A DNA stretch of 64,000 nucleotides from assembly GCA_963716725.1 (NCBI GenBank), contig CAVQUB010000010.1, forward strand, positions 96,001 to 160,000. The letters run 5' to 3'. The notes below the pieces were generated by a model, which was given only the letters and a program-made list of their open reading frames with translations, did no database searches and had not been told where the DNA came from. Source of the DNA: an uncultured delta proteobacterium (GTDB lineage: Bacteria > Myxococcota_A > Polyangia > Polyangiales > Polyangiaceae). A program made the position numbers and the translations under genes. Of this stretch, positions 7,661 through 62,097 are shown piece by piece (the first letter of the stretch is position 1; each line of letters starts with the position of its first letter).

Positions 7661-8002
7661 TGGAAACGAGGGGAGGTGTGGTGGGCGGATTTCGGAGCTC
7701 CGAGAGGATAAGCCCCGGCGCTTCGCCGCCCGGTCTTGATTGTCCAAGACGACGTGCTCACCGAGTCTGCGCTGCGGACCGTAATGGTGGTGCCGTTGAC
7801 CTCGAATCTGCGTCGGGCGGAGGCCATCGGGAACGTGTTGTTACAGCCCCGCGAGACCGGGCTCGATCGCGCTTCCGTCGTTCTCGTGCGTCAGGTCATG
7901 ACGCTGGACGCCGCGCATTTCGATCGGATCGTCGGCAGCCTGTCGCCTCGCGCTCGCAAGACCGTGGACGCGGGGCTGAAGCTCGCGCTCGCCCTCGGAT
8001 GA
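7654..8002 (+). pseudogene. mazF: PemK/MazF-family toxin interrupted by a +1 frameshift (~7662) and an in-frame TAA (7709-7711); possibly sequencing error
   Basis: Frame of 7661 reads WKRGEVWWADFGAPRG*APALRRPVLIVQDD...TVMVVPLTSN...QVMTLD...VDAGLKLAL, a classic MazF; the start codons at 7654/7657/7660 are in another frame. Confidence 0.85.
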
Positions 8003-8059
8003 GCCGCTGCAGGGCGCTCGGCCGTTGCCGCCTCCAGGGCCGTGGGGCATCGTAGGCGC

Positions 8060-9304
8060 GTGTCGGCAGACCCCCATCCTCCGCCCTGGGCGGAGCTCGG
8101 CAGCGCCTATCGCTCCGTGAAGGTCCTCGCGGGCGGCGAGCTCGGGGTCGCGACGAAGGACCACCTGGTGACGATCTTTGGTGCTGCGCGCACGGTCGTG
8201 CACCTGGATCTCGAAGGACGACTCCATCGGGCGTGGCTCGGCGACAGATCGTATCAACGCGGCCTCGACGGGAGGGTTCGACGCGTCACCTTCGAGGGCG
8301 AAGGTCGCGATCGTTCAATCGCCATCGAGATTGTGTCACCGGGGCTGGCGGCCGGCGTGTTCGCGCAAATTGGGGAGCTGGTCGCCGCTGCGCATGCTGC
8401 GCTGCCTGCCGACGTCGAGCCGGTCGTCGCCGAGACGCTCGCGCTTGCGCTGGGCGCGTTTGCTCCGAGCGCGGTGGAAGGGGAGGCGGCGAAATTCCGC
8501 GCCGCCTACGATCCGATCCCAATCCTGCCGCCGGATCGCAACCGCGCGCTGGTGATCCAGCTCACCTCCGGATGCTCCTGGAACCGTTGTACGTTCTGCC
8601 ACCTCTACCGCGATACGCGCTTCAGCATGAAGACGCCCGAGTCACTGGCGGACCACATCGGGCGGGTGCTCGGCGTGGTTGGCCGGGCGCTGCCGCTGCG
8701 CCGGGGTGTGTTTTTGGGCCAGGCCAACGCCCTGGTGATCGCGCGAGACAAGCTCTTGCCGCTGATCGACGTCGTGAACGCCGAGCTCCGGCGGGCGAGT
8801 GCTCCGGCTGCGTTCAGGTCGCTGTCGGCCTTCGTGGACGCCTTCTCGAGCCCGAAGCGCGTCGAGGAGTGGGCCGAACTCAGGCAGCGGGGCCTCGAGA
8901 GCGTGTCCCTCGGCCTCGAGAGCGGCAGCGACGACGTGCTGGCGACGCTGGGCAAGCCCGCGGAGTCGGCCGGCGCAGTTCGCCTGGTCGAGCAGCTCCG
9001 CGAGGCTGGCATCGGCGTCGGCGTCATCGTGCTCGCGGGCGCGGGTGGAGCGCGATGGCAAGAGCGCCACGTCGGCGCGACGGTCGAGGTCATTGCGCGC
9101 ATGGGCCTTCGGAAGGGCGATCGCGTGTACCTCTCGCCGCTGCAGGTCGAGCAGGGCTCGGGCTTTCAAGCGGCGTTCCAAGAGTTGGGAACGCTCTGCC
9201 TGGCCGAGATCGAGGCGCAGGCGAACAGCATCCGCGCGGGCCTGCGGGCGGCGGGGGTCAGCGTGCCCGTCGCGCGCTACGACATCCGAAGGTTCGTGTA
9301 CTGA
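8060..9304 (+). CDS. Radical SAM protein of unknown function
   Basis: ILPPD..ALVIQLTSGCSWNRCTFC (CX3CX2C), SLGLESGSD; start uncertain (8042 or 8060). Confidence 0.85.
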   Translation: MSADPHPPPWAELGSAYRSVKVLAGGELGVATKDHLVTIFGAARTVVHLDLEGRLHRAWLGDRSYQRGLDGRVRRVTFEGEGRDRSIAIEIVSPGLAAGVFAQIGELVAAAHAALPADVEPVVAETLALALGAFAPSAVEGEAAKFRAAYDPIPILPPDRNRALVIQLTSGCSWNRCTFCHLYRDTRFSMKTPESLADHIGRVLGVVGRALPLRRGVFLGQANALVIARDKLLPLIDVVNAELRRASAPAAFRSLSAFVDAFSSPKRVEEWAELRQRGLESVSLGLESGSDDVLATLGKPAESAGAVRLVEQLREAGIGVGVIVLAGAGGARWQERHVGATVEVIARMGLRKGDRVYLSPLQVEQGSGFQAAFQELGTLCLAEIEAQANSIRAGLRAAGVSVPVARYDIRRFVY

Positions 9305-9389: not shown

Positions 9390-9653
9390 CTACGCTGAAC
9401 TCGTCGAGGTCACGACTTTCGTCGCGTCCGTGCCGAGGGCGCGTTCGCGTTCGCGTTCGCGCCGCCGCACATGCCAGATGCCCAACCCGATGAGCGTGCC
9501 GATCAGCATCAGGGGAAACAGGCTCAAGAAGATGGTGGAGCCCACGTAGGCGTCGCGGGTGGCGTTGTTCTGCGGGGTCCCGCAGACCGGGCATCCGGCG
9601 GCCACGGCCGGAGCCAAGAAGGCGAGGCAGCCCGCCCAGAGCCCGGGCCTCAT
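9390..9653 (-). CDS. Small membrane protein with signal peptide and CPVC motif; last gene of the oxidase operon
   Basis: MRPGLWAGCLAFLAPAVAAG-CPVC...one TM helix...basic tail; ATGA overlap with the upstream subunit III gene. Confidence 0.75.
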   Translation of the reverse strand: MRPGLWAGCLAFLAPAVAAGCPVCGTPQNNATRDAYVGSTIFLSLFPLMLIGTLIGLGIWHVRRRERERERALGTDATKVVTSTSSA

Positions 9654-10243
9654 AGGTAGACCCTCCAGTAGAGGATCGGCCAGAGACCGACCACGAAGAA
9701 CCAATACAGGCGGGTGGCAGTGAAGAAACCGGGACCGAGCTGTCCGCGCTTCGCCTTCGCGCGCGCCGTCGCCAGGGCGAGGAGCCCAGCGACGGCGTGC
9801 AGGGCATGCGCGCCCACCAAGAGGTAGAAGAAGCTACCCGCCGGCCCCGAGCGCATGGTGAGGCCCTCGCCGATCAGGCGCACGCACTCGTAGCCTTGGA
9901 AGCCCACGAAGGCCGCGCCCAGCCCGAGCGCCGCTCCGAGCATCGTGGCCGCGCGCCCGGCCGCGACGCGGTACTCGCGGCGCGCGAAGTAGACCGCCAC
10001 CCCGCTGGCGATGAGCACGCCAGTGTTGACCGCCGTGGCCGCGATGGGCAGGCGCACTTGACCCGGTGGTGGCCAGGCCCCGGGGGTCGTGATGCGGGTG
10101 ATGGTGAAGGCGCTGATCAGCGCAGCGAAGAACATCGCCTCCGCCGCCAAGAAAATTGCCATGCCGATCACCGCGTTCGGCGCGACTGCTTCCCGCGGCG
10201 GCAGGCCGGCAGGGCGATCGACGGGCAGTGCGGCGGAGGTCAA
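9650..10243 (-). CDS. ctaE: Heme-copper oxidase subunit III (second copy)
   Basis: GMAIFLAAEAMFF, NTGVLIASG, FYLLVGAHALH, YWFFVVGLWP; TTG start. Confidence 0.88.
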   Translation of the reverse strand: MTSAALPVDRPAGLPPREAVAPNAVIGMAIFLAAEAMFFAALISAFTITRITTPGAWPPPGQVRLPIAATAVNTGVLIASGVAVYFARREYRVAAGRAATMLGAALGLGAAFVGFQGYECVRLIGEGLTMRSGPAGSFFYLLVGAHALHAVAGLLALATARAKAKRGQLGPGFFTATRLYWFFVVGLWPILYWRVYL

Positions 10244-10244: not shown

Positions 10245-10691
10245 TCAGTGCGCCTGGTGGGGTTGGTGTTTGATTGCTTCGAGTGCGCGCTTCACCTCTT
10301 GCTCCGCGGCCTCGTTCTTCCAGTTGTGACCCTTGTGCGCCATCACGTCGGGTGCGACGCCGAAGAAGAGCAGCACCATGAACGCCACCATGGTCGCGAG
10401 CATGTAGACGATGTAGCGGCGCTCGGTTCCGAGGTGCATGAAGTGCTTGGCTACCAGGTAGGCCTTGACCGTCGCGATACCGAATGCCGTCACCAGGGTG
10501 AGCACCGGGTGACCCAGCATGGGACCGACAACGCTGACCACCAGGAGCGCGACCAAGACCGCCCAAATCTGGACGTAGTGCATGTCGCCGTGGGGCGTGG
10601 CGTGGCCGTGGCCAGCCTTGGCGGGCCGAGCTGCCGGCGGCTCGCTCTGGGCCGCGGCGCTTCGATCGTGTTTCTTGCCGGAAGAAGCCAT
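10245..10691 (-). CDS. ctaF: Cytochrome c oxidase subunit IV family protein
   Basis: His-rich N-terminus, YVQIWAVLVAL, KAYLVAKHFMHL; ATG at 10691. Confidence 0.85.
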   Translation of the reverse strand: MASSGKKHDRSAAAQSEPPAARPAKAGHGHATPHGDMHYVQIWAVLVALLVVSVVGPMLGHPVLTLVTAFGIATVKAYLVAKHFMHLGTERRYIVYMLATMVAFMVLLFFGVAPDVMAHKGHNWKNEAAEQEVKRALEAIKHQPHQAH

Positions 10692-10702: not shown

Positions 10703-11275
10703 TCACTTCGCGATGTAGAGCAGCGGAAACAGGAAGATCCACACCAGGTCGACGAAGTGCCAGTAGTTGGCGATGAGCTCGACGCGCTGGAGCTCTTTGC
10801 CCTCGGCGGCATCTTTGGCGACGATGCCCATGATGACCACGCCGGCGATCACGTGCACCGCGTGGAGCCCGGCGGCGGTGTAGTAGAACGACCAGAATGC
10901 GTTGGTGGTGAGCGTGAAGCCGTGGCTGATCTCCATGGTCCACTCGGCTGCCTTGACGCAGGCGAAGGTCAAGCCGCCGAGCATGGTGAACATCAGCAGC
11001 TTGGCGGCCCGCACGCCGTCTTTGCGCTCGGCCGCCTGATGGGCGAGCACGGCCGAGAGGCTCGAGCTGAGCAGCACCAGGGTGTTGAAGGCGCCTATCC
11101 ACGTGTTGGTGTTGGCGGCGTAGTCGCCAAACTCGGGGTGCCCGAGCCGGTGCATGATGTAGGAGGCCAAGAGACCGCCAAAGATCACGATTTCCGAGGC
11201 GATCAGCCACCAGACGGCGAGGCGACCGGTGGGGATGCCGGTGGCGCTGCGGGTCGTGGCAATGGGTTTGTTCAT
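10703..11275 (-). CDS. ctaE: Heme-copper oxidase subunit III
   Basis: WWLIASEIVIFGG, NTLVLLSSS, FYYTAAGLHAVHV, YWHFVDLVWIFLFPLLY; ATGA overlap with subunit I. Confidence 0.92.
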   Translation of the reverse strand: MNKPIATTRSATGIPTGRLAVWWLIASEIVIFGGLLASYIMHRLGHPEFGDYAANTNTWIGAFNTLVLLSSSLSAVLAHQAAERKDGVRAAKLLMFTMLGGLTFACVKAAEWTMEISHGFTLTTNAFWSFYYTAAGLHAVHVIAGVVIMGIVAKDAAEGKELQRVELIANYWHFVDLVWIFLFPLLYIAK

Positions 11276-12978
11276 TGCGCCGCCTCCGGCGTGGGCTCCG
11301 AGCCGTCGTCGGGCGGCTCGTCCTGGGGCCAGAAATCGCTCTCGCGCCCGGGCACCGAGTACTCGTAGGGGCCGCGGTAGACCGAGGGCAAGACCTCGAA
11401 GTTGCCATGCGGCGGCGGTGAGGCAGCCGCCCACTCGAGCGTATTGGCGTTCCAGGGGTTATTGCCCGCCCGCTTCCCGCTCTTCATGCTCTTGAAGAAA
11501 TTGTAGAAGAAGATCACCTGCGCCGCGAGCATCGCGACGGTGGCGATGGTGGCGATCATCCGGAGGTTCTGCAGGTCCGCGCGCGCGAGGTCGGGGAACT
11601 GCCGGTAGTCGTGGATGCGGCGGTGATCCCCGGCGGCGCCGGTGATGAACAGCGGGATGAAGATGAAGTTGAAGGGGATGATGGTCGTCCAGAAATGCAG
11701 CTTGCCCAGCTTCTCGTCCAGCATCTTGCCGAACATCTTCGGGAACCAGAAGGTGACGCCAGCGAAGGTCGCGATGATGGCGATGGGCACGAAGGTGTAG
11801 TGGAAGTGAGCGAGCACGAAGTAGGTGTCGTGGAAATAGATGTCCGAGCCGCTGGACCCCAGGTAGATGCCGGTCACGCCGCCGATTAGGAACTCGGCGA
11901 CGAAGGCCAGGGCCCAGAGCATGGGTGTCGTCAGCCGAATCGAGCCGCCGTAGAGCGTGGCGATGGTCACGAAAATCATCTCGGCGATGGGCACCGAGAT
12001 GAGCACCGTCGTGACCGTGAACACGTTGGCCATCCGCGGGTCGATGCCGGCCACGAACTGGTGATGTGCCCAGACGAAGAAGCTGAGAATACCCGTGGCA
12101 AAGGCCGTGTAGAGCACGGTCTTGTAGGCGAAGACCTTCTTCCGGGCGAAGACGGCGATGACGTCGATGGTGATGCCGGCCGCTGGCAGGAACACGACGT
12201 AGACCTCCGGGTGGCCGAAGAACCAGAACAAGTGCTGCCACAAGATCGGGTCACCGCCGCGGACCGGATCGTAGAAGCCGGTGCCGAACTGCTGGTCCAT
12301 GAGCAGCATGACCGCGCCGGCGACCAAGGGCCCGACGGAGCCCATGAACACGATGGTGGCCACCACGATCATCCAGATCACGACCGGGATCTGGTGCCAC
12401 TTCATGCCCGGGGCCCGCGAGTTCATCACGGTGGTCAGGAAGTTGATGCCGCCCATCAAGAAGGCGACGAACTCGAGGGCCACCGCCAAGAGCCAGAGCG
12501 TCGAGCCGGCTGGAGTGAGGCTGTATTGGTGCTTCGCCGAGAGCGGCGGATACGCTGTCCAGGCGCCGCCGAAGGCGCCGCCCGGCACGAAGAACGAGGC
12601 GAGCAGCACGAGGGCGCTGACGAGGAAGATCTGGTAGCTGAGACGATTCAGCCGCGGGAACACCATGTCGTCGCAGCCGATCATGAGCGGGATCAGGAAG
12701 TTCCCGAAGGCCGCGATCAGCACCGGCATCGCCACCCAGAAGATCATGATGGTGCCGTGGTTGGTGACCAGGGCGTTGTACTCGTTGGGCGATACCAAGC
12801 CGTAGCCAGGGACGCTCTGGCCCGGGAACCCGAGCTGCATGCGGAAGGCGTAGACGAAGAAGCCGCCGAGCAGGGCCATGGCCATGCCCGTGAACAGGTA
12901 CTGCAAACCGATGATCTTGTGGTCGGTGGACCACAGGTACTTCTTGACCCAGCCTTCTTGGGGGTGAGCGTGACTCAT
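11272..12978 (-). CDS. ctaD: Cytochrome c oxidase subunit I (A1-type GHPEVY motif, atypical K-channel)
   Basis: STDHK, NHGTIMIF, GAWTAYPPLS, WFFGHPEVY, VWAHH, HDTYFVLAHFHY, RR pair. Confidence 0.97.
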   Translation of the reverse strand: MSHAHPQEGWVKKYLWSTDHKIIGLQYLFTGMAMALLGGFFVYAFRMQLGFPGQSVPGYGLVSPNEYNALVTNHGTIMIFWVAMPVLIAAFGNFLIPLMIGCDDMVFPRLNRLSYQIFLVSALVLLASFFVPGGAFGGAWTAYPPLSAKHQYSLTPAGSTLWLLAVALEFVAFLMGGINFLTTVMNSRAPGMKWHQIPVVIWMIVVATIVFMGSVGPLVAGAVMLLMDQQFGTGFYDPVRGGDPILWQHLFWFFGHPEVYVVFLPAAGITIDVIAVFARKKVFAYKTVLYTAFATGILSFFVWAHHQFVAGIDPRMANVFTVTTVLISVPIAEMIFVTIATLYGGSIRLTTPMLWALAFVAEFLIGGVTGIYLGSSGSDIYFHDTYFVLAHFHYTFVPIAIIATFAGVTFWFPKMFGKMLDEKLGKLHFWTTIIPFNFIFIPLFITGAAGDHRRIHDYRQFPDLARADLQNLRMIATIATVAMLAAQVIFFYNFFKSMKSGKRAGNNPWNANTLEWAAASPPPHGNFEVLPSVYRGPYEYSVPGRESDFWPQDEPPDDGSEPTPEAAQ

Positions 12979-12981
12979 GGC

Positions 12982-13674
12982 TCAGGGGGCTTTCGCGCTG
13001 GCGAGCTTCTTCTGTGATTGCTCGGCGATCCAAGCGGCGTGCGCCGCGGGTGACTCGATGACGATGCGACCCGGCATCAGGCCGTGCCCTACGCCGCAGA
13101 TCTCGGCGCACTGGATGTCGAAGCTGCCGGTCTTGGTGGGCTTGAACCAGCCCTGGATGATGCGGCCCGGCACCGCGTCTTGCTTGAGGCGGAACACCGG
13201 AATGCTGAAGCTGTGCAGCACGTCGCGCGAGACCAAGTTGAAGTGGTAGGTCTTGTTGACTTCGACGTGCAGCTCGTCAGTCGTGCGGATGTCGTCATCG
13301 GTGCCGAGCTTGCCGTCCGAGCCGGGGTGCTCGAAGGTCCAGGCCCACTGCTGGGAGATGACGTTCACCTTTGCGTCGGGCTCCGGCATGGTCTGCTTCA
13401 CCGCGACCCAGACCTTGATCGCCATCACGATGATGACGATGTCGCAGGCCAAGATCATGTTGTGCGGGCGCGTGATCCACTTCTTCTCTTCCTTCTTCTC
13501 CCCGGTGATGTAGAGGGCCTTGCGACCCGCTTTCTCCTTGAATTTGAAGATGAGGTAGAAGAGCGCGCCCTGGGCGACGAAGAACCAGAAGCCGACCAGC
13601 ACCGTGATCAGCGTGATCAGGTTGTCGATCTCGGCGGCGTAGGTCGACGCTTGGGGGACGAGCCATTCAATCAT
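12982..13674 (-). CDS. ctaC: Cytochrome c oxidase subunit II (CuA, no fused cytochrome c)
   Basis: QQWAW, DVLHSF, CAEICGVGHGLM CuA motif; ATG at 13674. Confidence 0.95.
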   Translation of the reverse strand: MIEWLVPQASTYAAEIDNLITLITVLVGFWFFVAQGALFYLIFKFKEKAGRKALYITGEKKEEKKWITRPHNMILACDIVIIVMAIKVWVAVKQTMPEPDAKVNVISQQWAWTFEHPGSDGKLGTDDDIRTTDELHVEVNKTYHFNLVSRDVLHSFSIPVFRLKQDAVPGRIIQGWFKPTKTGSFDIQCAEICGVGHGLMPGRIVIESPAAHAAWIAEQSQKKLASAKAP

Positions 13675-13823
13675 CGCGAAAGCTCCACGGACGTGTCGGG
13701 CGAGTGCTTCGGCTCGCCTGCCAGCGCGAGAACCGAGGCTGCGGCCACGTAGGCCACGAGGGCGCCGGCGGTGAGCCAGAAGGTCCACTTCGCCACGGCG
13801 TCGCTGCTGATGTCTTTTGCCAT
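13671..13823 (-). CDS. Unannotated 50-aa single-TM protein
   Basis: MAKDISSDAVAKWTFWLTAGALVAYVAAASVLALAGEPKHSPDTSVELSR; GAGGAG SD before the ATG; stop overlaps the subunit II start (ATGA). Confidence 0.75.
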   Translation of the reverse strand: MAKDISSDAVAKWTFWLTAGALVAYVAAASVLALAGEPKHSPDTSVELSR

Positions 13824-13833: not shown

Positions 13834-14499
13834 TCACTTGGCCTGGGCGATGAACGCGGCGATGTCGCGCGTCGCCTGATCGTCGGGCAGCATCACGGCC
13901 TGGGGCCGCATCATGCCGCCGGTGGCGTCGTCCGGATGGGTGCCGCGGATGCCCTTGCGGAACCTCATGAGCTGAGTGGCGATGTACCAGTCACTCTGCG
14001 CCTGAAGGGGAGGCCCCTTGGTGCCCTCGTTGCCCTCGCCGCTCGCGCCGTGGCACGCAGCGCAGGGCTTGAAGAGGGTCGCACCGCGCGCCGGGTTTGC
14101 GTCCTTGATCTGCGCTTCAGGTCGGAAGCGGGGCATCTGCGAGACGTGCTGCGAGATGGTCTTGATGTCGCCGTCGTGGATCAGGGTGCGCGCTATGGGC
14201 CGCATCTGCATGCCCGTGATGTCGTCGGGGTGTGCTCCGCGCTGCCCACTGCGGAACTTGATCAGCTGCGCCTCGACGTACCAAGCGGGCAGTCCCGCGA
14301 TGGCCGGCGTGTTGGCAAAGCGGTTGCCGAGGCCGCTTTCGCCGTGGCACTGCGAGCAGAGCTGGTAGAGTTGCTCGGCCGAAGCGCCTGCGCCTGCGCC
14401 CGCGGGGGCGGTGTTGCACGCGGAGAGCGCGAGCAGCACGACGGCGGTGAGCGCCCCAACACAGAGTGCTCCCAGAGACCGGCGACTGTGGGTCGTCAT
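13834..14499 (-). CDS. Di-heme cytochrome c4-type lipoprotein
   Basis: CSQCH and CAACH, each followed by P.L/IAG/Q..WY and an axial Met; lipobox LLALSA-C; alternative start 14514. Confidence 0.9.
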   Translation of the reverse strand: MTTHSRRSLGALCVGALTAVVLLALSACNTAPAGAGAGASAEQLYQLCSQCHGESGLGNRFANTPAIAGLPAWYVEAQLIKFRSGQRGAHPDDITGMQMRPIARTLIHDGDIKTISQHVSQMPRFRPEAQIKDANPARGATLFKPCAACHGASGEGNEGTKGPPLQAQSDWYIATQLMRFRKGIRGTHPDDATGGMMRPQAVMLPDDQATRDIAAFIAQAK

Positions 14500-14813
14500 C
14501 TGTCCAATCCGCATCTCGATTCAGACGGCACCGTACAGCAAGCCGCAGCGCTTTCACCATGAAATTATCCCGAAAACAGACAGTTTTGTGTGGGATCGGG
14601 TCTGTGGGGGGGGGCGAGTGTTCCCGTTGGGGACGAACGACGGTCACGGGCGGCCTGCGCCGGACAGCGACGGGACATCGGTCCGTCGAACAGGGGGCGT
14701 GACCGGCCCCTCGCGGTACACGCACCGCCGCGCTCGGCGCAGCGGCGGCGCTGGGGACCGCGGGTGGGCGCGATCGATTCGACTGGACGTGGCCGTCCGG
14801 CGGACGCGCGGAT

Positions 14814-15353
14814 TCAGGGCGCTTCGGGCACTTCCGGCGCGGTCGGCGGCTTTGGAGCCGGCGTGGTCGGCGGCTTTGGAGCCGGCGTGGTCGGCGGCGC
14901 TGGCTTCTCTTCCGTCGGCTCCGGCGCTGCGGCGTCGGTCGCGGTCTCGGCCGCATCCGTGGTGGCCTCGCCGCCGTCCGCGCCTTCTGCCGTGACCTCG
15001 GCGCCGTCGGCGCCCGCATCTGCGTCGGGAACTTTCGGCGGCGGCGGTGGCGGGGTCGCCGACGCCGGGTCGTCGTTCAAGGACTTGACGACCATGGCCA
15101 TCGCGCGCTCGACAGGCAGCGCCGCGGTGCCCTTGGCCTTGTCCGACCAGGACGCAGGCGCGACGAGCTCGCCCTGCTGCTGGAGCGTCGTGTCCTTGGT
15201 AGCGCGCTCGAGGTCGATGGATTGATTGGCGAGCTGGGTCTCTGCGGCCTGGGTCGTCGACATCGTGTACGCGATGGAGGCGCCCACGCCCACCACACCC
15301 AGGAGCACCAACACGGCTGGAACGACGCTGGTCTGTTCGTTGTGCTTTGCCAT
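14814..15353 (-). CDS. ActG-like ACIII accessory membrane protein with Pro-rich tail
   Basis: One TM helix, WSDKAKGTAALPVERAM motif, position directly after actF, GGAG SD. Confidence 0.65.
   Translation of the reverse strand: MAKHNEQTSVVPAVLVLLGVVGVGASIAYTMSTTQAAETQLANQSIDLERATKDTTLQQQGELVAPASWSDKAKGTAALPVERAMAMVVKSLNDDPASATPPPPPPKVPDADAGADGAEVTAEGADGGEATTDAAETATDAAAPEPTEEKPAPPTTPAPKPPTTPAPKPPTAPEVPEAP
14841..14898. repeat. 24-bp coding tandem repeat (about 2.4 copies) encoding PPTTPAPK
   Basis: GGTCGGCGGCTTTGGAGCCGGCGT at 14841 and 14865, partial copy at 14889. Confidence 0.85.
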
Positions 15354-15372: not shown

Positions 15373-16602
15373 TCAGAAGTTCTCGAACGCCAGCGATTTG
15401 TCCAGTCGCGGGTCCTTGATGGGCACCAGATTCACCTTCTGGGAGGAGAACGCGGCGGCAGCGATGAACAGCCCGAGCACACCAATGGTGCAGGTGAGGT
15501 CCATCAGGCTGAAGGGCAGATGCTCGGTGTGCATGTGCGGCTTGACCAGCCAGAACATGTCGAGCCAGTGCACGACCAAGATCCAGACCGCCCAGAAGCC
15601 AAGGCCAAAGCGATTGCGCTTCACGTGTCGCGACATCAGCCCGAAGAAAGGGATCACGAAGTTCACCGCGATCATCGCGAAGGAAACCATGCCCCACGGC
15701 CCGTGGGCGCGCAGGTGGTACCACTCCGTCTCTTCGGGGATGTTGGCGTACCAGATCAGCATGAACTGGCTGAAGGCGATGTAGGCCCAGAAGGCCGTGA
15801 ACGCGAACATCATCTTGCCGATGTCGTGGTAGTGCTCACTGGTCACGCTCTTGGCGAGGCGGCCGTTCTTTTGCAGCCACATCAGCGTGAGGGCGAAGAA
15901 CGAGTGGAAGCTGACCACCGCACCGGCGAAGTAGTAGACGCCGAAGATGGTCGAGTACCACTTGGGCTCCAGCGTCATCAGGAAGTCGATGGACGCGAAG
16001 GTCAGCGTCAACGCCAAGAGGATCATGCTCGGGGCACAGAGGCCCTGGAGCTTCGAACGGATTTCTGGCGCCCCGGTCTTGTCCTGCTCCACGCTCTTCG
16101 AGAACAGAAAGCGCGAGAGCACTCCCCAGAACACGAAGTAGATCACTAGGCGGACGACGAAGAAGTCCTTGTTGAGGTAGGCCGCCTTCTTGTGCAGCAT
16201 GTGGTCGGCCTGCATCTTGTTGCCGTCGGCCCAGATGTACAGCGTGGTGTCACCCATCAGGGTGGGGATCACGATGGGCAGCGAGAGCAGCGCCAGCATG
16301 GGCATCGTCGAAGCGAGGATCTCCCCGACGCGGCGGACCACGGTGCTCCACTTGGCGTTGACCAGGTGTTGGAGCACGACCCACCACAGGGCGCCGAGGC
16401 CGATGCTCAGGATCCACGCGTACGCCGTCAGGTACGAGTGCATGAACTGAGCCTTGTCGCCGGTGAACCCCAGGAAAAGGCTTGCGCCGAGGGCGACGGC
16501 GCCGACGCCGCCGGCGATCCCCATCAGCTTCGCAGCGAGGCCATCCATGCGGATGTTGTCGCCGAAGCCCCCGTCTTTGGCTGTCTCTGTCGTCTTGGCC
16601 AT
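15373..16602 (-). CDS. actF: Alternative complex III subunit ActF
   Basis: WSTVVRR, W.STIFG, HYHDIGK, FWAYIAFSQFMLIWYANIPEET; about 10 TM helices. Confidence 0.92.
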   Translation of the reverse strand: MAKTTETAKDGGFGDNIRMDGLAAKLMGIAGGVGAVALGASLFLGFTGDKAQFMHSYLTAYAWILSIGLGALWWVVLQHLVNAKWSTVVRRVGEILASTMPMLALLSLPIVIPTLMGDTTLYIWADGNKMQADHMLHKKAAYLNKDFFVVRLVIYFVFWGVLSRFLFSKSVEQDKTGAPEIRSKLQGLCAPSMILLALTLTFASIDFLMTLEPKWYSTIFGVYYFAGAVVSFHSFFALTLMWLQKNGRLAKSVTSEHYHDIGKMMFAFTAFWAYIAFSQFMLIWYANIPEETEWYHLRAHGPWGMVSFAMIAVNFVIPFFGLMSRHVKRNRFGLGFWAVWILVVHWLDMFWLVKPHMHTEHLPFSLMDLTCTIGVLGLFIAAAAFSSQKVNLVPIKDPRLDKSLAFENF

Positions 16603-16617
16603 CTCAGGGATCTCCAC

Positions 16618-17826
16618 TCACTTCAACGTGGCGCGTTCGGCGTCAGTCAGCTCACCCACCGGGGCAGCTTTGGCCTTTTGCAGGGCGCGTAGGTAGAGGA
16701 CGACGGCCCAGCGATCGTTCAACGAGATCTGCGAGGCGTAGGGCGGCATGTTACGGACGCCGTGGGTGACGACGTCGTAGAGCTGTCCGACCGGCATCTG
16801 TCGGAGGTAGTCCATGCCCATGTTGGTCGGCGGCACCCAGGTGCCCTCGGCGAGCGTCATGGCGCGTTGCGAGACCGGCCCGTCGCCGTTGCCGCTGATC
16901 CCGTGGCACGGTGCGCAGAAGATCTCGAAGCGCTCCTTGCCCTTGGCCATGCTCGCGGCATCGACGCTGAAAGCTTGGGGGAAGGTCCGGGCGAACTGGC
17001 CGTCGACCTTGCCTGCGGTGAGGTGCTCGTCGTCCGGGTGTTCGTCCATGGCGACAGTGCCCGGTTCGGGAGCACGCATCGCCATTTGGTCGGGGAAGAG
17101 CGGGTTTGGTTGCTGAGCTTGGTACTTCACCTGCCAGTCCATGTCGCCGACCGCGTGGATGCGGGTCTCCGTGGTCTTCGCGGCGCGCGCCTTGGCGATG
17201 AAAGCAAAGGGCACCAGCGCGAGGACGGCCACGACGGCTGCGGTGAGCAGCAGCGGCTTGGGCAGGCGATCGGAGGTCGAGCGGTCCTCGTGGACGAGGT
17301 CCACGGCGACCGGGTGGGTCCCGTCGAGCAGCTGCTGGGTGTCGTTCGCGTCGAACTTCTCGTCGCGACGCTCGATGAAGAGGAAGAAGCGATCGTCCGT
17401 GGCACGGCCGAAGGCCTGCAGGTGATCCAGGGGGTGCGCCGGCTGCGGCAGGTTGTTCAAGATGAGCATGCCGAAGAGCGCCGCGAAGGCGCTAAAGAGG
17501 ATGGTCACCTCGAAGTAGACCGGCACGCTGGCCGGGATGCTCCACATTGGCTTGCCGCTGGAGATGAACTTGTAGTCCACCGCATTGGTCCACCACTGCA
17601 GCCAGATGGCCGCACCCAGGCCGAGCAGAGCGGCGATGAGCACGAGCCAGGGCAGGGCGGTCATGCGAATGCCCATGGCCTTGTCGATGCCGTGGACAGG
17701 GAAGGGCGTGTACGTGTCCCATTTGGCGTAGCCCGCGTCGCGCACCTTCTTGCAGGCCGCGACCAGCGCGCTCGGGGTCTCGTACTCCGCCAACAGGCCG
17801 TGCAGATCGTCGTCGTGTTCGCTCAT
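16618..17826 (-). CDS. actDE: Fused ACIII subunits ActD (DUF3341) and ActE (monoheme c)
   Basis: N-half DTYTPFPVHG, SGKP, FEVTILF, DDRFFL; C-half DMDWQ, CAPCHG, GVRNMPPY, DRWAVVLYLRALQ. Confidence 0.9.
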   Translation of the reverse strand: MSEHDDDLHGLLAEYETPSALVAACKKVRDAGYAKWDTYTPFPVHGIDKAMGIRMTALPWLVLIAALLGLGAAIWLQWWTNAVDYKFISSGKPMWSIPASVPVYFEVTILFSAFAALFGMLILNNLPQPAHPLDHLQAFGRATDDRFFLFIERRDEKFDANDTQQLLDGTHPVAVDLVHEDRSTSDRLPKPLLLTAAVVAVLALVPFAFIAKARAAKTTETRIHAVGDMDWQVKYQAQQPNPLFPDQMAMRAPEPGTVAMDEHPDDEHLTAGKVDGQFARTFPQAFSVDAASMAKGKERFEIFCAPCHGISGNGDGPVSQRAMTLAEGTWVPPTNMGMDYLRQMPVGQLYDVVTHGVRNMPPYASQISLNDRWAVVLYLRALQKAKAAPVGELTDAERATLK

Positions 17827-17836
17827 GGTCGGACCC

Positions 17837-19204
17837 TCAGTGGTCGTCCCCGTGCGCATGCGCGGAGGGGTGGAAGGCCTTCACCTCGCTCATGGCGACC
17901 ATGGGCAGGTAACGGCAGAACAGGAGGAACAGGGTGAAGAAGAGGCCGAAGCTGCCAGCCAGCAGCGAGAAGTCCCAGAAGGTGGGCTTGTAGTAGCCCC
18001 AGCTCGACGGCAGGAAGTCCCGCGAGAGGCTGGTGATCACGATCACGAAGCGCTCGAACCACATGCCGATGTTCACGAGCACGCCCACCACCAAGATGAC
18101 CCAGGGGTTGGTGCGCATCTTCTTGGACCAGAACACCTGGGGCGTGACCACGTTGCAGAAGATCATGCACCAGTACGACCAGGCATAGGGACCGAGCGCC
18201 CGGTTGAAGAAGGTGAACATCTCGTAGTCGTTGCCGCTGTACCAAGCGGTGAAGAACTCCATCGAGTAGGCGTAGCCAACCATCATGCCCGTCGCGAGGA
18301 TGATCTTGGCCATCAGCTCGAGATGCCCGATGGTGATGATGCGCTTGAGCCCGAAGAACTGACGCGCCGGGACGGCGAGGGTCACGACCATGGCGAAGCC
18401 GCCGAAGATGGCGCCGGCCACGAAGTAGGGCGGGAAGATGGTGGCGTGCCAGCCGGGCAGCTGCGCCGTGGCGAAGTCGAATGAAACGACCGAGTGCACG
18501 CTGAGCACCAGCGGCGTGGCGAGTGCGGCCAGGATCAAGTACGCGCGCTCGTAGCGGTGCCACTGGCGGCTCGATCCACGCCAGCCCATGGCCAGGATGC
18601 CATAGGCGATCTTGCGACCCTTGGTCGTCGAGCGGTCGCGGAAGGTCCCAAAGTCCGGGATCATGCCCATGTACCAGAACAGGGTGGACACCGTGAAATA
18701 GGTGCCGACCGCGAACACGTCCCACTCGAGTGGGCTCCTGAACTGCGGCCACATGCTCATCTGGTTCGGCAGCGGAAACATCCAGTAGGGCAGCCAGGGC
18801 CGGCCGACGTGCAGTCCCGGGAAGATGCCGGCGCAGATGACCGCGAAGATGGTCATGGCCTCGGCGAAGCGGTTGATGGCGGTGCGCCAGTTCTGACGCA
18901 GCAGATACAGGATGGCGCTGATCAGCGTTCCGGCGTGGCCGATGCCGACCCAGAACACGAAGTTCACGATCGGCATGGCCCAGAACACTGGGTTCATGTT
19001 GCCGAAGATGCCGATGCCCGACCACATCAGCCAGCCGATGCTCACGCCGAAGATGGAGAGCAGCGTGAGGGCGATGCCGAAGGCGATGTACCAGCCGCGG
19101 GGCGGCCTTTGCACCTCGGCGACGCGGGCGACGTTGTGGGTGATCTTCGCGAACGCGTTCTCACCTTGCGGCGGGGCGTCGAAGGGATTGACGGCGATGG
19201 CCAT
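17837..19204 (-). CDS. actC: ACIII subunit ActC (NrfD/PsrC family)
   Basis: [55 protein letters not shown]. Confidence 0.95.
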
Positions 19205-19207
19205 GGC

Positions 19208-22255
<3,048 letters not shown>

Positions 22256-22268
<13 letters not shown>

Positions 22269-22900
22269 GCTGAGCAATCCTCGGGAGGGTTGATGTTGTT
22301 CGCCTTCTTGAACTCGGCGCCGAAGGTCGGGCTGGGCGCTTGCCAGCTCATGTTGGTCGCCTCCGCAGGCGGCCGGAGGTGCGGAGCGGGGTTGCGGTGA
22401 CACTCGAGGCACCAGCCCATGCTGAGCGGCTCGACCTGGGAAACCTCTGCCATCCGATCGACCCGCCCGTGACAGCTCACGCAGCCGATGCCGCGGGTCA
22501 CGTGCGCGCTGTGGTCGAAATAGACGTAGTCCGGCATGTCGTGGACCTTCACCCACTCCACCGGCTTGCCCGTCTCGAAGCTCTGGCGGATGAGCTCGAG
22601 TTTGTCGCTCTTGCCCCGGACGCGAGCGTGACAGTTCATGCACGTCTCGGTCGGCGGCGTGGCGGCGTGCGCCGCCCGATCGACGGTGTTGTGGCAGTAG
22701 CGGCAGTCGATGCCGAGCTCGCCGGCGTGCAGCGCGTGGCTGTACGCGACCGGTTGCTTCGGCTGATACCCGACGTCGGTGGTCTTTGGGGAGAACCCGT
22801 ACCAGACCAGTGCGGTCAGGTAGACCGGGGCGACGCCGAGCGCGACGCCGGCGAGCTGCCGGGTCTTATTGGCCCATCGCGGGAACGTGAATGAATTCAT
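22256..22900 (-). CDS. actA: ACIII subunit ActA (pentaheme cytochrome c)
   Basis: One TM helix, QPVAYSHALHAG, five CxxCH (CRYCH, CMNCH, CVSCH, CLECH, CSACH); ATG at 22900. Confidence 0.95.
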
Positions 22901-23145
22901 CGGTTCGACCCTGAGCTGGGTCGTCCGGCGTGCGTGGCGCACGGCACCGGACGAGGAGGTGATCGGGGCGCCCCCCGGTAGCACGAGGCGGGGATGGAAG
23001 GCGACAGAAGAGACGCACCTTTGCCGACGAAATGACGGACGTCTGTCGCATGCGAGCGCGAGACCCCCCAAGTCGTCACGGCCCGCCCACGCCGCGCGGC
23101 GAGGTTATGCGAGAGTCCCCTCGGGTTGTAAAGCTAGAAATCCAC

Positions 23146-23790
23146 CTAGTCGGCCAGCGATCGCAGCCGGCCGAGGTCCGAGACGCGTACGGTCCGGCCG
23201 CGCGATAGCGCGCCGGCCTCGCGCAAATCAGCGAGGGCCCGGGACAGCGTCTCGGGGCGCATGCCGAGCATGCCTGCCAGCACCCGGTGTGGGGTTTCGA
23301 GGGTCTCTCCGCCGTCCTCCGCTTCGGAGTGTTGCAGCAGAAAGCGCGCCACACGCCGGACCGCGGACCCCTGCAGCGCCTGGCGCTCTCCCACGCGTCG
23401 CGCGGCTTCTTCGAGCGAGTAGACGAGCGCTGCGCCCGCCGGGGTGTTGCGCGAGCCAATCCACGCCTCTGCAGCTGCTCGATCGAGGGTGCAGTACGCG
23501 ACGTCGGTCAGCGCCCACACTTGATAGGGCATCGGCTGATTGAGGAGCAGCTCGAGGCCCAGCATGCTGTCCGGGCCGCGAACCGCGCACGAGACCTCGG
23601 CTCCCGACGCCGCCGTCGAGCTGAGCACGACCTGCCCTCGGCGAAGGTAGAGCGCGGCGTCGGGGGTCACCCCCTGTTGCAGCAGCACACTTCCGGACGC
23701 GCGCCGGGTGTCCCTGAAGGGACAATCGTGCACTCCCGAGCGTAGAACGAGAGCGCAGGTTTGACATCTGACCGGCAACGAGGCGTTCAT
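23146..23790 (-). CDS. Crp/Fnr-family regulator with FNR-like cysteine set
   Basis: CQTC-x10-C N-terminus, internal ALTDVAYC, HTH LAGMLGMRPETLSRAL. Confidence 0.88.
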   Translation of the reverse strand: MNASLPVRCQTCALVLRSGVHDCPFRDTRRASGSVLLQQGVTPDAALYLRRGQVVLSSTAASGAEVSCAVRGPDSMLGLELLLNQPMPYQVWALTDVAYCTLDRAAAEAWIGSRNTPAGAALVYSLEEAARRVGERQALQGSAVRRVARFLLQHSEAEDGGETLETPHRVLAGMLGMRPETLSRALADLREAGALSRGRTVRVSDLGRLRSLAD

Positions 23791-23871: not shown

Positions 23872-24045
23872 ATGCGCTGGTTATTCCTGGTTTTGTTGGT
23901 AGCGGCCGCCTGCGACAAGCCGGCGCAATCGCCGAAGGGAGGGGGAAAGGCTTCCCCCAAGCCCCAGCCGTCCGCTTCGGCGGGGGCTGAAGACGACGGC
24001 ATCGTCCCGCCCCCGGACAAGCCAGGGTACGAAAAGCCCGAGTAG
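23872..24045 (+). CDS. Small lipoprotein (57 aa)
   Basis: AGGAAG SD; MRWLFLVLLVAAA-C lipobox; low-complexity mature part. Confidence 0.7.
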   Translation: MRWLFLVLLVAAACDKPAQSPKGGGKASPKPQPSASAGAEDDGIVPPPDKPGYEKPE

Positions 24046-24079
24046 GAAGGGCGCGTGGGGGCGTGCTAGCGGTCGACCC

Positions 24080-25477
24080 GTGCGAGCGCTGTTGCTCAGG
24101 CCCCGGGCGCGGGAGCGCTTCGGTCTTGGTCCGTTCTTTCGGGTGGAGCCCCTCGGGCTCGAGTACCTCGCGGCTGCGCTGATCCAGGAGGGACACGAGG
24201 TCGAGATCCGTGACCTCCGCTTGTCGCGCTCGCTGGGGTCCGCGCGCCCCGACTGGGTGGGCATCTCCTGCATCCACACCATCGACCTGCCCGAGACGCT
24301 CGAGTTGGCCCGGCGGGTGAAGCGGCGGTGGCCGGGGATCTTCGTGTCCGTCGGCGGTCACGCCGCGAGCTCGGATCCTGAAGCGCTCGCGGTGCCGGAG
24401 GTGGACGCGGTCGCGTTGGGCGCCGGCGAGCGAAGCGTGTGCCGCTTGGTGGCGGCGCTGAGTCGTGGTGACTCTCCGGCGGGGATCCCGGGGATCTGGG
24501 TCCGCGGGAGGGATCTGGTGCGCGGGGGCGAGGATCCTGATGGAGCCGATCCAGCCCTGCTGCCTGCCCGCAAGCTCGTGGCGAGGTACCGATCGAAGTA
24601 TCGATGTGTGCACCGCTCGCCGATCTGGGCGCTGGAGACCGGACGCGGCTGCCCCTTTCGTTGCTCGTTCTGCGCCGTCGGGCGTAGCGACGGGTATCGC
24701 GCGCGCGACATCGACGCGGTGGCTCGTGACTTCGCTGAGGTCGGCGACGACGTCTTCGTCATCGACGACCTGTTCTTCTACCCTCGGGAGCGCAGCCGCG
24801 AAATTGCCAGGAGGCTAGCGACTGGCGACCTGAAGAAGCGCTGGATTCTGGCCCAGACCCGGGCGGACACAGTCGTGAGGAGTACCGAGTTGCTCGAAGC
24901 TTGGCGCCCGCGCGCCGAGCGATTCGACCTGTTCTTTGGCTTCGAGGCCGCCACCGATCGAGCTCTCGCGGCGCTCGGGAAGGACGCGACCGTGAGCGAC
25001 ACCGAGGAAGCGGTGCGCATCTGCCGAGAGCTGGGCTTCGGTGTCACCGGCAACTTCGTGGTCGACCCGGACTGGAGTGAGAGCGACTTCGAAGATCTAT
25101 GGGCACTCCTCGATCGCGTGCGCCTCGACCGCGTCGGCTTCACGGTGCTCACCCCGCTGCCCGGCACGGACTACTACGAGCAGCAGCGTGCGAGGGTTGC
25201 CGAGAAGGACTTCTCGCGCTTCGACATGCACCACCTGCTCTGGGAGCCGCGCCTCGGCCGCAGGCGCTTCTACGAGCTGATGGTCGAGAGCTGGAAGCGC
25301 AACGTGCTGTCGAGCGGCAATGCGTCGCGGCGTTGGCTGAAGTGGTTTCGCGGCATCGGCGTGAAGGAGGCCCTCGCATTGGCGGGTGTCCTCTATCGGA
25401 CGCAGCGGCTCATGAACGTCGATGCCTACATGGACGATACCTTTCCCCTCGAGTTGCCCGCGCTGCTGTCCGAGTAG
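24080..25477 (+). CDS. Cobalamin-binding radical SAM enzyme (class B methylase-like; HpnR-like N-terminus)
   Basis: EPLGLEYLAA, VGGHAAS, GAGE (B12 domain); GRGCPFRCSFC; LTPLPGT. Confidence 0.88.
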   Translation: MRALLLRPRARERFGLGPFFRVEPLGLEYLAAALIQEGHEVEIRDLRLSRSLGSARPDWVGISCIHTIDLPETLELARRVKRRWPGIFVSVGGHAASSDPEALAVPEVDAVALGAGERSVCRLVAALSRGDSPAGIPGIWVRGRDLVRGGEDPDGADPALLPARKLVARYRSKYRCVHRSPIWALETGRGCPFRCSFCAVGRSDGYRARDIDAVARDFAEVGDDVFVIDDLFFYPRERSREIARRLATGDLKKRWILAQTRADTVVRSTELLEAWRPRAERFDLFFGFEAATDRALAALGKDATVSDTEEAVRICRELGFGVTGNFVVDPDWSESDFEDLWALLDRVRLDRVGFTVLTPLPGTDYYEQQRARVAEKDFSRFDMHHLLWEPRLGRRRFYELMVESWKRNVLSSGNASRRWLKWFRGIGVKEALALAGVLYRTQRLMNVDAYMDDTFPLELPALLSE

Positions 25478-60887: not shown

Positions 60888-62090
60888 ATGGTGCCAACGA
60901 ACCTCGCAAAACGACTGGAAGCGGTGGCGCCGAGCGCGACCCTCGCGATGACCGCAAAGGCCGCGGAGCTCAGGGCGAAAGGCCGTAAGGTCTACGCTTT
61001 TGGCGTGGGCGAGCCCGACTTCGAGACGCCCGAGCACATCCGCCTCGCGGCGCAGGCAGCGATGGGCAAGAGTTCGCACTACACCGCGGTGCAGGGCACG
61101 GCCAGCCTGCGCGAAGCGATATGCGTCGCGACCGAACGGGACCGTGGGTGGCGGCCGACGCCGGACGCCGTCACCGTATCGGTTGGAGCGAAACACGCAC
61201 TCTTCAACCTGGCGATGGTGCTCTGTGACCCCGGTGACGAGTTCGTGATCCCCGCCCCGTATTGGGTGAGCTACCCGGAGCAGGTGCGCTTGTTCGGAGG
61301 CGTCCCAACGATCGTCGAGACCAGCGCCGAGCGCGGCTTCCGCATGACTCCCGAGGCACTCGATGCGGCCATCGGACCGCGGACCAAGGCCGTCATCTTG
61401 TGCACTCCGTCGAACCCGAGCGGAGCGGCCTACGACGCCGGCGAGCTCTTGGCTCTGGCCGAGGTGCTGAAGGCGCGCGACGTATGGATCGTGCTCGACG
61501 AAATCTACGGCGACCTGACCTACGAGGGTTTCGAGCACGTTTCGCTGGCCAAGCTGGCGCCGGAGCTGCGGGACAAGATGATCGTGGTCGATGGCGTGAG
61601 CAAGACCTACGCGATGACCGGCTGGCGCATCGGCTGGTCCATCACGCCGCCGGCGCTGGCCAAGGCCCTGCTGAAGGTGCAGGGGCAGTCCACCACCAAC
61701 GCCACCGCGATCGCGCAGGCCGCGGCGGAGGCAGCGCTGCTCGGTCCCCGGGAACCCATCGCCGAGATGGCCCGGATCTTCGCCGAGCGCCGGCGCCGAA
61801 TGGTCGAGGGGTTGAACGGAATCCCGGGCATGCGCTGTGACTGGCCGCGCGGCGCGTTCTACGCGTTTCCCGACGTCACGGGCCTCTACGGTATCCAGTG
61901 GGGCGACCGGCGGCTCGCGAGCGCGGACGACGTTTCGCTCTGGCAGCTCGAGGTCTGCGGGATCGCCGCGGTGGCGGGTGAGCCCTTCGGTGCGCCGGGC
62001 CACGTGCGCTACAGCTACGCTGCGGCCGAGTCCGTGATCGACGAAGCGCTCTCCGTCCTCGGCGCAGCGGTCGCTTCTGCAAAGCGTTGA
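60888..62090 (+). CDS. PLP-dependent class I/II (aspartate) aminotransferase
   Basis: VGEPDF, GAKHAL, PYWVSY, PSNPSG, DEIY, SKTYAMTGWRIG. Confidence 0.95.
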   Translation: MVPTNLAKRLEAVAPSATLAMTAKAAELRAKGRKVYAFGVGEPDFETPEHIRLAAQAAMGKSSHYTAVQGTASLREAICVATERDRGWRPTPDAVTVSVGAKHALFNLAMVLCDPGDEFVIPAPYWVSYPEQVRLFGGVPTIVETSAERGFRMTPEALDAAIGPRTKAVILCTPSNPSGAAYDAGELLALAEVLKARDVWIVLDEIYGDLTYEGFEHVSLAKLAPELRDKMIVVDGVSKTYAMTGWRIGWSITPPALAKALLKVQGQSTTNATAIAQAAAEAALLGPREPIAEMARIFAERRRRMVEGLNGIPGMRCDWPRGAFYAFPDVTGLYGIQWGDRRLASADDVSLWQLEVCGIAAVAGEPFGAPGHVRYSYAAAESVIDEALSVLGAAVASAKR

Positions 62091-62097
62091 CCATCGA

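Follow-up and report, generated by a model that had tools for sequence, protein, structure and literature searches.

Lysine 362 of subunit I is among the most studied residues in bioenergetics, and its replacement by methionine (K362M) is the standard way of killing the K pathway. In Table 2 of PMC3084760 the definition of the A-type oxidases includes K354, T351 and S291 (Paracoccus denitrificans numbering; K362, T359 and S299 in Rhodobacter sphaeroides). In the channel description of a molecular-dynamics paper, the R. sphaeroides K channel is delimited by P315, G324, G327, A356, I363, S365 and W366 together with H96, L100 and E101 of subunit II, and the D channel by a set of residues that includes S197, S200 and S201 (PMC10341450). 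The present analysis concerns a 64,000-nucleotide stretch of contig CAVQUB010000010.1 from an uncultured delta proteobacterium of the Polyangiaceae (hereafter the window), in which the adjacent genes coxII and coxI encode an A-family cytochrome c oxidase that naturally carries methionine at position 362 and has new protonatable residues in both core subunits. On the evidence of residue conservation and of a predicted complex it is quite possible that the K-type proton path has been relocated to the seam between subunits I and II; that the new residues conduct protons we infer.

Family-A oxidases without the lysine were already in print. Degli Esposti et al. (2021) tabulated family-A COX1 proteins that lack the lysine and are accompanied by a COX2 without E78, the equivalent of R. 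sphaeroides E101 (PMC8239418, Supplementary Table S3), and like them the window enzyme has a non-protonatable residue in place of K354 (M334 of the window protein) and keeps the D channel. Their A1 row for “bacterium HR19 (Calescamantes)”, with S291 replaced by F, K354 by T and T351 by F, shows the pattern of a basal member (L023, Ca. Calescibacterium, 51% identity) of the clade described below, so the clade has already been touched in print. On the other hand, their five supplements hold no entry for Myxococc, Polyangi or Sorangium, the lysine is present in the rows for Gemmatimonadetes, and E197, E361, S356, T319/T323 and the subunit II residues His71 and Asp78 are not among the columns that they scored. 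The idea of a remodelled K channel, put forward in the initial annotation of this DNA, was therefore anticipated as far as the missing lysine and E78 are concerned, and is new only in the replacement residues. The aa3 oxidases of the rus operon in Acidithiobacillus and other Fe(II) oxidisers also have a natural Ile, Val or Met at the lysine position and lack COX2 E78; unlike the window enzyme they are of the A2 type (no E286) and come from acidophiles. Papers on the replacement residues of the clade, or on the biochemistry of such A1 enzymes, were not found in our search, and Figs S9–S11 of the 2020 preprint may show related sequences. A replacement motif that spans both core subunits is specific and testable, and is apparently undescribed.

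The R. sphaeroides subunit I (1M56_A) is the top PDB sequence match of the window CoxI (HMMER E 1.3e-122, 413.6 bits), and the alignment runs without a gap from helix II to helix X. Residues are given here in R. sphaeroides numbering unless the window protein is named, the CoxI residue of the window being the R. sphaeroides number minus 28. CoxI retains Y33, H102, N121, D132, N139, S142, N207, H284, E286, Y288, H333, H334, H419 and H421. The histidine ligands of haem a, haem a3 and CuB (H74, H256, H305, H306, H391 and H393 in the window) are invariant, as is the R481/R482 pair (R453/R454), and the Tyr-I motif H-x3-Y on helix VI reads H256-P-E-V-Y260. The metal ligands, the H-x3-Y motif, E286, D132, N121, N139, N207 and the arginine pair had all been read in the initial annotation by manual alignment, and every one of them holds in the alignment to 1M56_A. 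CoxI passes the PF00115 cut-off with 430 bits (cut-off 34.8) and stays under that of TIGR02891 (CtaD_CoxA; 584 bits, cut-off 670.75).

The K channel differs throughout. K362 is replaced by M334, T359 by I331, S299 by I271, S365 by V and W366 by T, a set described here as hydrophobic replacements, and a new glutamate (E333 for I361) stands next to the K362 position. The helix VIII string SVPIAEMIF that had been reported is present in the translation, so that the loss of T359 and K362 and the gain of a glutamate at 361 are confirmed; neither a lysine at 362 nor a threonine at 359 appears when the protein is aligned with R. sphaeroides. The helix VI string LPAAGITID and the loss of S299 were likewise read correctly, with V298 and H300 next to it replaced by T and D; the reference string quoted for comparison, LPGFGIISH, was wrong, as R. 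sphaeroides reads LPAFGIVSH, and the conclusion is unchanged. In helix IV the string LEFVAFLMGGIN is found in the translation, which bears out a glutamate at S197 (E169) and the loss of S200 and S201 (A172 and F173).

Judged by these residues, CoxI is an A1-type oxidase subunit with E286 present. D132, N121, N139, N207, Y33 and S142 lead to E286 as in the A1 D channel, and the K362, T359 and S299 of the A1 K channel are M, I and I. B-family enzymes have no D channel and an alternative K channel of Thr, Ser and Tyr, whereas CoxI has both the D channel and E286. The C-family cbb3 oxidases share with the clade the possibility, taken up below, of a proton path on helix VII positions; the clade enzyme has Ser at the position of their helix VII cross-link tyrosine (Tyr-II), a CuA subunit II instead of CcoO/CcoP, and E286 with a D channel. 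With the canonical A1 enzymes of R. sphaeroides (1M56) and P. denitrificans (1AR1/3EHB) it shares the haem and CuB ligands, H-x3-Y, E286, the D channel, R481/R482, CuA and the subunit III/IV set, and it differs from them, besides the K-channel replacements, by an unconserved E101 in subunit II and by the gain of E197, S356, E361, T319, T323 and S327 in subunit I and of H71, D78 and a four-residue insertion in transmembrane helix 2 (TM2) of subunit II. With the active site, the CuA site and the D channel intact, the products of coxII and coxI probably form the catalytic core of a genuine and active cytochrome c oxidase of the aa3 type (A-family, Glu286-type). It is extremely improbable that the enzyme does not reduce O2 at all and is, for example, an A-family-derived NO reductase: the parts of PMC11214002 that deal with this question describe several switches of HCO (haem-copper oxidase) families to NO reduction, and describe the known NO reductases as lacking the tyrosine cofactor, whereas the window enzyme keeps the His-Tyr cross-link motif, the three CuB histidines, E286 and an intact CuA site. 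A sequencing error or a pseudogene was considered and rejected, since the reading frames are unbroken and the residues hold in 119 of 119 CoxI and 120 of 120 CoxII homologues.

The CuA ligands of CoxII (H154, C189, C193, H197 and M200) are invariant, and the protein scores 139.8 bits with TIGR02866, under the cut-off of 147.7. Its helix 2 is lengthened by one turn, with four extra residues between two conserved tryptophans, and carries D78 in 120 of 120 homologues, H71 in 119 and C77 in 115; as H71 and D78 are seven residues apart, they lie on the same face of the helix. The initial annotation had noted that subunit II lacks the usual entry motif. The string L-E-I-x-W-T is indeed absent, but HMMER places E63 (in ...KKEEKKW...) at the position of E101, which is lost in the class of Degli Esposti et al.; as only 66 of the 120 homologues keep this glutamate, the clade as a whole does not conserve the entry Glu.

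Among the 119 closest CoxI homologues in the database (74–100% identity), E197, A200, F201, E361, T319, T323 and S356 are each present in all 119, S327 in 117 and T315 in 107; position 362 is M in 111, L in seven and T in one, and is never Lys. Both new glutamates, whose conservation had been proposed as a check, are therefore constant among the nearest relatives. At 50% clustering the clade has one full-length representative, and the next relatives, about 45% identical, have the lysine. Of 80 loci from species-representative genomes 24 lack the lysine and 56 have it, and columns were compared between 18 core members without the lysine (K-less), five outer K-less members and 56 canonical CoxI proteins. 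S356 is present in 18/18 core, 5/5 outer and 0/56 canonical proteins. E361 occurs in the core subclade only; the outer members have I, V, M, L and V there, and the T319 and T323 positions are occupied by S/A and L/A in the outer members. The lumen of the canonical K channel has turned hydrophobic throughout the clade (K362 to M/L, T359 to I/V/F, S299 to A/I, N/S365 to V/A and W366 to Y/T/M/F). The replacements most tightly linked to the loss, Asp78 and His71 of subunit II and Ser356, Thr319, Thr323 and Ser327 of subunit I, had escaped the initial annotation.

A tree was built from 68 rows, namely the window, 22 K-less loci, 31 canonical loci, 13 cluster representatives and a B-like outgroup; the fragmentary or frameshifted L018, L019, L026, L028, L030 and L067 were left out and near-identical Acidobacteriota rows thinned. 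The K-less clade is monophyletic in it (22 rows; SH-like approximate likelihood ratio test, 100) and nested among A-type sequences, with the B-like outgroup distant. These results support the view that the clade is a distinct A1-type oxidase subfamily in which the canonical K channel has been dismantled in both subunits. The K-less L032, P0140, P0143, P0167 and P0179 fall outside the clade and, by their placement in the tree, are independent losses of the lysine. Members come from Myxococcota, Gemmatimonadota (Gemmatimonadaceae, Longimicrobiales), Bdellovibrionota, Verrucomicrobiota (a Puniceicoccaceae isolate), Ca. Eisenbacteria, Fibrobacterota and Ca. Calescibacterium, and identities of 68–78% between phyla indicate lateral spread. 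In the phylum of the window, 66 of 201 sampled genomes have a homologue of at least 56% identity among the matches listed, a count scored by identity and not by motif. As for cultured hosts, six clusters gave only the names of metagenome-assembled genomes (MAGs), the sole other record being Puniceicoccaceae bacterium K14 (L016).

Three records need separate mention. L017, a 37-kb contig in a record titled as a Klebsiella pneumoniae MAG, carries a full clade-type module (CoxI 68% identical with E197, E361 and M362, CoxII with H71 and D78) and is most likely a mis-binned contig and not an enterobacterial gene. In L026, from an uncultured delta proteobacterium MAG, the clade-type coxI appears disrupted (the H284–Y288 columns are unaligned and the tblastn match begins late), a probable frameshift or assembly error. 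The CoxI at L032:9977-11695, from an uncultured proteobacterium MAG and placed in a canonical-type clade, has H284 and H333 replaced by Q, D132 by E, T359 by A and K362 by V, and is probably a degenerate, non-catalytic paralogue.

The loss of K362 goes together with the changes in subunit II. In 77 pairs of subunits I and II, none of the 53 with K362 has D78 or the TM2 insertion, and Glu occupies the E101 position in every one of them whose sequence reaches it (L071 ends before it); of the 24 pairs without K362, 22 have D78, the two others being L032, which lost the lysine independently, and L023, whose alignment is ambiguous. As the members in the clade share one origin in the tree, the association shows linkage from essentially a single event and is not a statistical test. 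E197, S356, D78 of subunit II and the loss of the lysine are found at the base of the clade; H71 of subunit II was gained next, being present in L016, which still has I361, and E361, T319 and T323 were gained last. It follows that the initial proposal of a Glu-based alternative proton path holds only in part: the new glutamates are real, but they do not form one path, the one at 197 being old and in the D channel and the one at 361 restricted to the core.

A predicted complex of CoxI and CoxII places several of these residues together. The prediction scored 0.91 against 0.01 for the best of three controls, at a mark reached by 116 of 157 solved complexes and by two of 215 mismatched pairs, counts that hold only roughly here because the alignments were built by the authors; as solved cytochrome c oxidase complexes exist, the pass reflects likeness to them and is not fresh evidence of binding. 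Three runs shared at least 97% of contacts, and the predicted local distance difference test score (pLDDT) of the partner was at least 89. The predicted interface on CoxII comprises residues 63–64, 66–67, 70–71, 74–75, 78 and 81–82, the face that bears E63, H71 and D78, and on helix VIII of the window CoxI residues 328–329, 332–333 (including S356 and E361) and 335–337; residues 331 and 334, at the T359 and K362 positions, are not among the predicted interface residues. Predicted contacts of residues 321, 322 and 325 with residue 82 of CoxII fix an antiparallel register, by which H71 would lie level with K362 and face E333 (E361), and D78 would lie level with T359 and A356 and face S328 (S356). 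D78 and H71 of subunit II and S356 and E361 of subunit I are thus predicted to sit on the subunit interface beside the emptied K channel. Since the K-channel borders given in the channel description of PMC10341450 include 315, 327 and 356, the Thr and Ser residues of the clade at these positions would flank the old K channel, and 197 would line the D channel.

In the mechanism that we propose, the canonical K pathway is filled with hydrophobic residues, with the D pathway and the active site canonical, and the task of the K pathway, the delivery of protons to the binuclear centre during its reduction, would have shifted by about one helix face sideways to the seam between the subunits. Protons would enter from the N (negative) side past the Lys/Glu-rich start of CoxII helix 2, pass His71 of subunit II, which would lie roughly level with K362 and, in the core subclade, be paired with Glu361 of subunit I, then Asp78 of subunit II, roughly level with T359 and paired with Ser356 of subunit I, and reach Tyr288 over T352 and the hydroxyl stripe of helix VII (T315/T319/T323/S327); the D channel would retain its usual role. 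It is possible, on this proposal, that mid-membrane protonatable groups from subunit II paired with Glu361 and Ser356 rebuild the K pathway at the interface, and that nature holds a “K362M” oxidase that is fully competent and serves as sole terminal oxidase in some aerobes.

Several observations speak against this proposal. The outer members L022, L023, L042 and L044 lack E361, T319, T323 and H71, so that only D78 of subunit II with S356, or else E197, can be a general solution, and the residues of the core subclade would be later refinements. In L023 the alignment is too ambiguous to assign a position to D78. Independently K-less proteins in the sample do not repeat the pattern, L032 keeping E101 of subunit II and lacking D78, and P0128, P0167 and P0179 lacking E197. 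Additionally, the model gives interface membership and not side-chain geometry, and it leans on solved oxidases that have no TM2 insertion. The buried Asp/His pair could also be structural, serving helix packing after the insertion, or could bind a lipid or a metal.

The general presence of E197 brings in a second explanation, a single-channel oxidase with no K-type path at all, in which all chemical and pumped protons would pass through the D channel and Glu197, a second carboxylate near Glu286 and beside the lost Ser200 and Ser201, would branch protons to the active site. Such an enzyme would mirror the B- and C-family oxidases, in which the only channel is of the K type. We consider it somewhat unlikely. 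In established mutant work a working D channel is not known to rescue the reductive phase of K362M enzymes, and the invariant Asp and His in helix 2 of subunit II, like the Ser, Thr and Glu at the K-channel borders, would be left unexplained. It is favoured by the retention of D132, N121, N139, N207, Y33, S142 and E286, and by position 197: Glu or Asp stands there in each of the 23 K-less clade members compared, together with the loss of S201, and in none of the 56 canonical proteins, which have F or L at 197 and S at 201 in 48 of 56 cases. Position 197 is also among the D-channel-lining residues named for R. sphaeroides in the channel description of PMC10341450, and the Degli Esposti preprint, in its discussion of K-less enzymes, argues that they retain the D channel.

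A K-like path lying wholly in subunit I along helix VII is distinctly unlikely. It would resemble the “KC-channel” of the cbb3 oxidases, with T315/T319/T323/S327 and the Glu or Asp at 300 as its groups, and D78 and H71 of subunit II would be structural only. The hydroxyl stripe has the i, i+4 spacing of such a path, S327 stands at the position of the cbb3 cross-link tyrosine, and T319 and T323 have the complete conservation given above. However, T319 and T323 are absent from outer K-less members in which D78 of subunit II is present. Degli Esposti et al. proposed (preprint; PMC8239418) that some Lys-less family-A COX1 proteins use the cbb3-like KC positions; at these positions (312, 316, 319 and 327; mapped by an ungapped count that was checked against the R. 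sphaeroides and Paracoccus rows of their table) the window has A, V, T and S, so that two of the four are polar, and the R. sphaeroides and Paracoccus rows read G, M, A and G.

The relocated path presupposes an enzyme that turns over, and the genomes of its carriers bear on this point. In a Longimicrobiales genome (G001, locus L008) consisting of one 2.86-Mb chromosome, the K-less oxidase is the sole PF00115 match and no cytochrome bd was found; as the sole terminal oxidase found there, the enzyme must work. In the genome of the window (a 7.9-Mb assembly, 84% complete, whose nearest named protein relatives are Polyangiaceae/Myxococcota MAGs) it is the only candidate O2 reductase found; no cytochrome bd was found either, an absence that the incomplete assembly leaves unproven. 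Among other carriers, G002 and G005 have two further HCO matches each, G004 has one and G003 has a fragmented second copy. From one study, two metatranscriptome runs contain short contigs that agree with coxI, coxII, actC and actA to within 0–2 differences, a weak hint of transcription of these genes, as DNA carry-over is possible and neither level nor strand can be read from contigs.

The genome of the window holds a second HCO homologue of 534 aa (G000:C6:216798-218159; L002:1351-2955; PF00115, 225 bits), which reads GHPSQQ at the H-x3-Y site and so lacks the cross-link tyrosine, which makes it unlikely to be an O2 reductase. A CuA-type subunit II and a SCO1/SenC gene accompany it (L002:819-1346 and L002:3157-4215), and a Crp-type regulator is encoded some 5 kb upstream, at C6:211806-212030. 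We regard the homologue as a candidate NO reductase derived from the B family, resembling the eNOR/sNOR types as PMC11214002 describes them.

A slow or non-pumping special-purpose oxidase, which would scavenge O2 or serve in signalling under Fnr control and would tolerate the lack of a K-type path, is very improbable. K362M is the classical near-dead mutation, and a Crp/Fnr-type gene heads the cluster of the window; yet no other terminal oxidase was found in G001 and no other candidate O2 reductase in the genome of the window, its conservation between phyla at about 70–78% identity indicates strong purifying selection, and the Fnr and alternative complex III (ACIII) context is not conserved in the clade. 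The initial annotation had invoked an Fnr-linked context, and this is right for the window, where the Crp/Fnr-family gene lies directly upstream of actA on the same strand with only about 40 bp between its stop and actA, but it does not extend to the clade. A palindrome just upstream of the regulator start suggests autoregulation. A scan of the window for FNR boxes (TTGAT-N4-ATCAA, at most two mismatches) gave 11 matches against 5.3 ± 2.2 expected, and one of 100 shuffles reached 11, so that the window-wide count barely exceeds chance; this palindrome is the only match with a promoter-like placement. The sole match with one mismatch (13415–13428) lies inside coxII and was set aside as probably due to chance. 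In the partial text of the NmpR paper (PMC11841059), the cluster is one that its authors call cbb3, and nothing on the K-less clade appears there.

The linkage to ACIII was rejected as a feature of the clade. When the window ActA, ActB, ActC, ActD/E and the reading frame at the actF position were searched by tblastn against the 80 loci, ACIII lay upstream in one core-clade locus (L019) and in one canonical locus (L024). The ACIII-aa3 system of Flavobacterium johnsoniae (“A1 a-III subtype, split”) likewise has aa3 genes beside ACIII and two COX3-like genes; unlike the window enzyme, its COX1 has a full K channel (Y S K S N E ... E). What is kept across the clade is the module of dihaem cytochrome c, CoxII, CoxI, Cox3, Cox4 and Cox3. 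Apart from L018, which ends at coxI and so offers no upstream sequence, all core-clade loci have a tblastn match to the dihaem cytochrome c just upstream of coxII, and this protein is likely the electron donor of the oxidase.

Many clade members (P0011, P0012, P0024, P0027 and others) carry the NCBI product name “cbb3-type cytochrome c oxidase subunit I”. The proteins belong to the A family and score too low for the CtaD model (584 bits, cut-off 670.75), so that the name serves as a generic fallback and assigns no family; it would mislead inferences on oxygen affinity in Myxococcota and Gemmatimonadota genomes. An abundant clade that crosses phyla, has a natural Met or Leu at 362 and supplies what is apparently the main, sometimes the only, oxidase amounts to a natural experiment on the need for the K pathway and on other ways of doing its work. 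If subunit II does supply the replacement groups, the textbook view of proton channels as a property of subunit I alone changes.

The positions of the features are collected in Table 1. In the order of transcription, the minus-strand cluster comprises the Crp/Fnr regulator, the ACIII genes, the 179-aa reading frame, the dihaem cytochrome c, coxII, coxI, the first cox3-like gene, the subunit IV-like gene and the second cox3-like gene. The ATG of the first cox3-like gene overlaps the stop of coxI as ATGA (11272–11275), which suggests translational coupling. The 414-aa reading frame has no Pfam or NCBIfam match and is called actF by position only; the 50-aa and 179-aa frames have no Pfam match, and tblastn found neither in the 80 loci.

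Table 1. Features of the oxidase cluster, in window coordinates (residues in R. sphaeroides numbering are marked Rs).
Feature	Position	Strand	Remarks
coxI	11272..12978	-	568 aa; A-family haem-copper oxidase subunit I; E286 present, K-channel Lys absent; PF00115
coxII	12982..13674	-	230 aa, starts MIEWLV; CuA subunit II without cytochrome c domain; PF00116
CoxI helix VIII codons I331-A332-E333-M334 (Rs T359-G360-I361-K362)	11977..11988	-	
CoxI S328 (Rs A356)	11995..11997	-	Ser in all K-less members, G/A in all canonical
CoxI helix VII hydroxyl stripe T287, T291, T295, S299 (Rs 315, 319, 323, 327)	12082..12120	-	i, i+4 spacing
CoxI I271 (Rs S299)	12166..12168	-	K-channel Ser lost
CoxI helix IV E169...A172-F173 (Rs S197, S200, S201)	12460..12474	-	D-channel Glu gained, Ser201 lost
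CoxII TM2 H71...C77-D78	13441..13464	-	Membrane-embedded His and Asp, seven residues apart
CoxII E63, aligned to Rs E101 of subunit II	13486..13488	-	HMMER alignment; not clade-conserved
Dihaem cytochrome c, lipoprotein-type signal	13834..14514	-	PF00034, two stretches
cox3-like subunit, first	10703..11275	-	PF00510
Prokaryotic subunit IV-like protein	10245..10691	-	PF03626, 34.3 bits
cox3-like subunit, second	9650..10243	-	PF00510, 62.2 bits
Alternative complex III: actA, actB, actC, actD/E fusion, 414-aa membrane reading frame	15373..23104	-	PF14522, Fer4/Molydop_binding, PF03916, PF11821
Crp/Fnr-family regulator, N-terminal C-x2-C-x10-C	23146..23790	-	PF13545, 63.3 bits (search of genome)
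Perfect palindrome TTGAC-N4-GTCAA	23822..23835	.	About 30 bp upstream of regulator gene
179-aa membrane protein reading frame	14814..15353		Between the actF-position frame and the dihaem cytochrome c gene in cluster order
50-aa single-helix membrane reading frame	13671..13823	-	Between the dihaem cytochrome c gene and coxII; overlaps coxII start region

Other genes of the window were noted in passing. A haem O synthase gene (62038–63000, plus strand; TIGR01473, 251.6 bits, cut-off 210.3) lies about 50 kb away from the oxidase genes. Just downstream of the oxidase cluster stands a pair on the plus strand, a PemK/MazF-like toxin reading frame (7712–8002; PF02452, 59 bits) directly upstream of a radical SAM gene (8042–9304). 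On the other side, divergent from the Crp/Fnr-type regulator, a B12-binding radical SAM protein is encoded at 23903–25477 on the plus strand; its top model is the hopanoid C-3 methylase HpnR, with 212 bits, far under the cut-off of 650.

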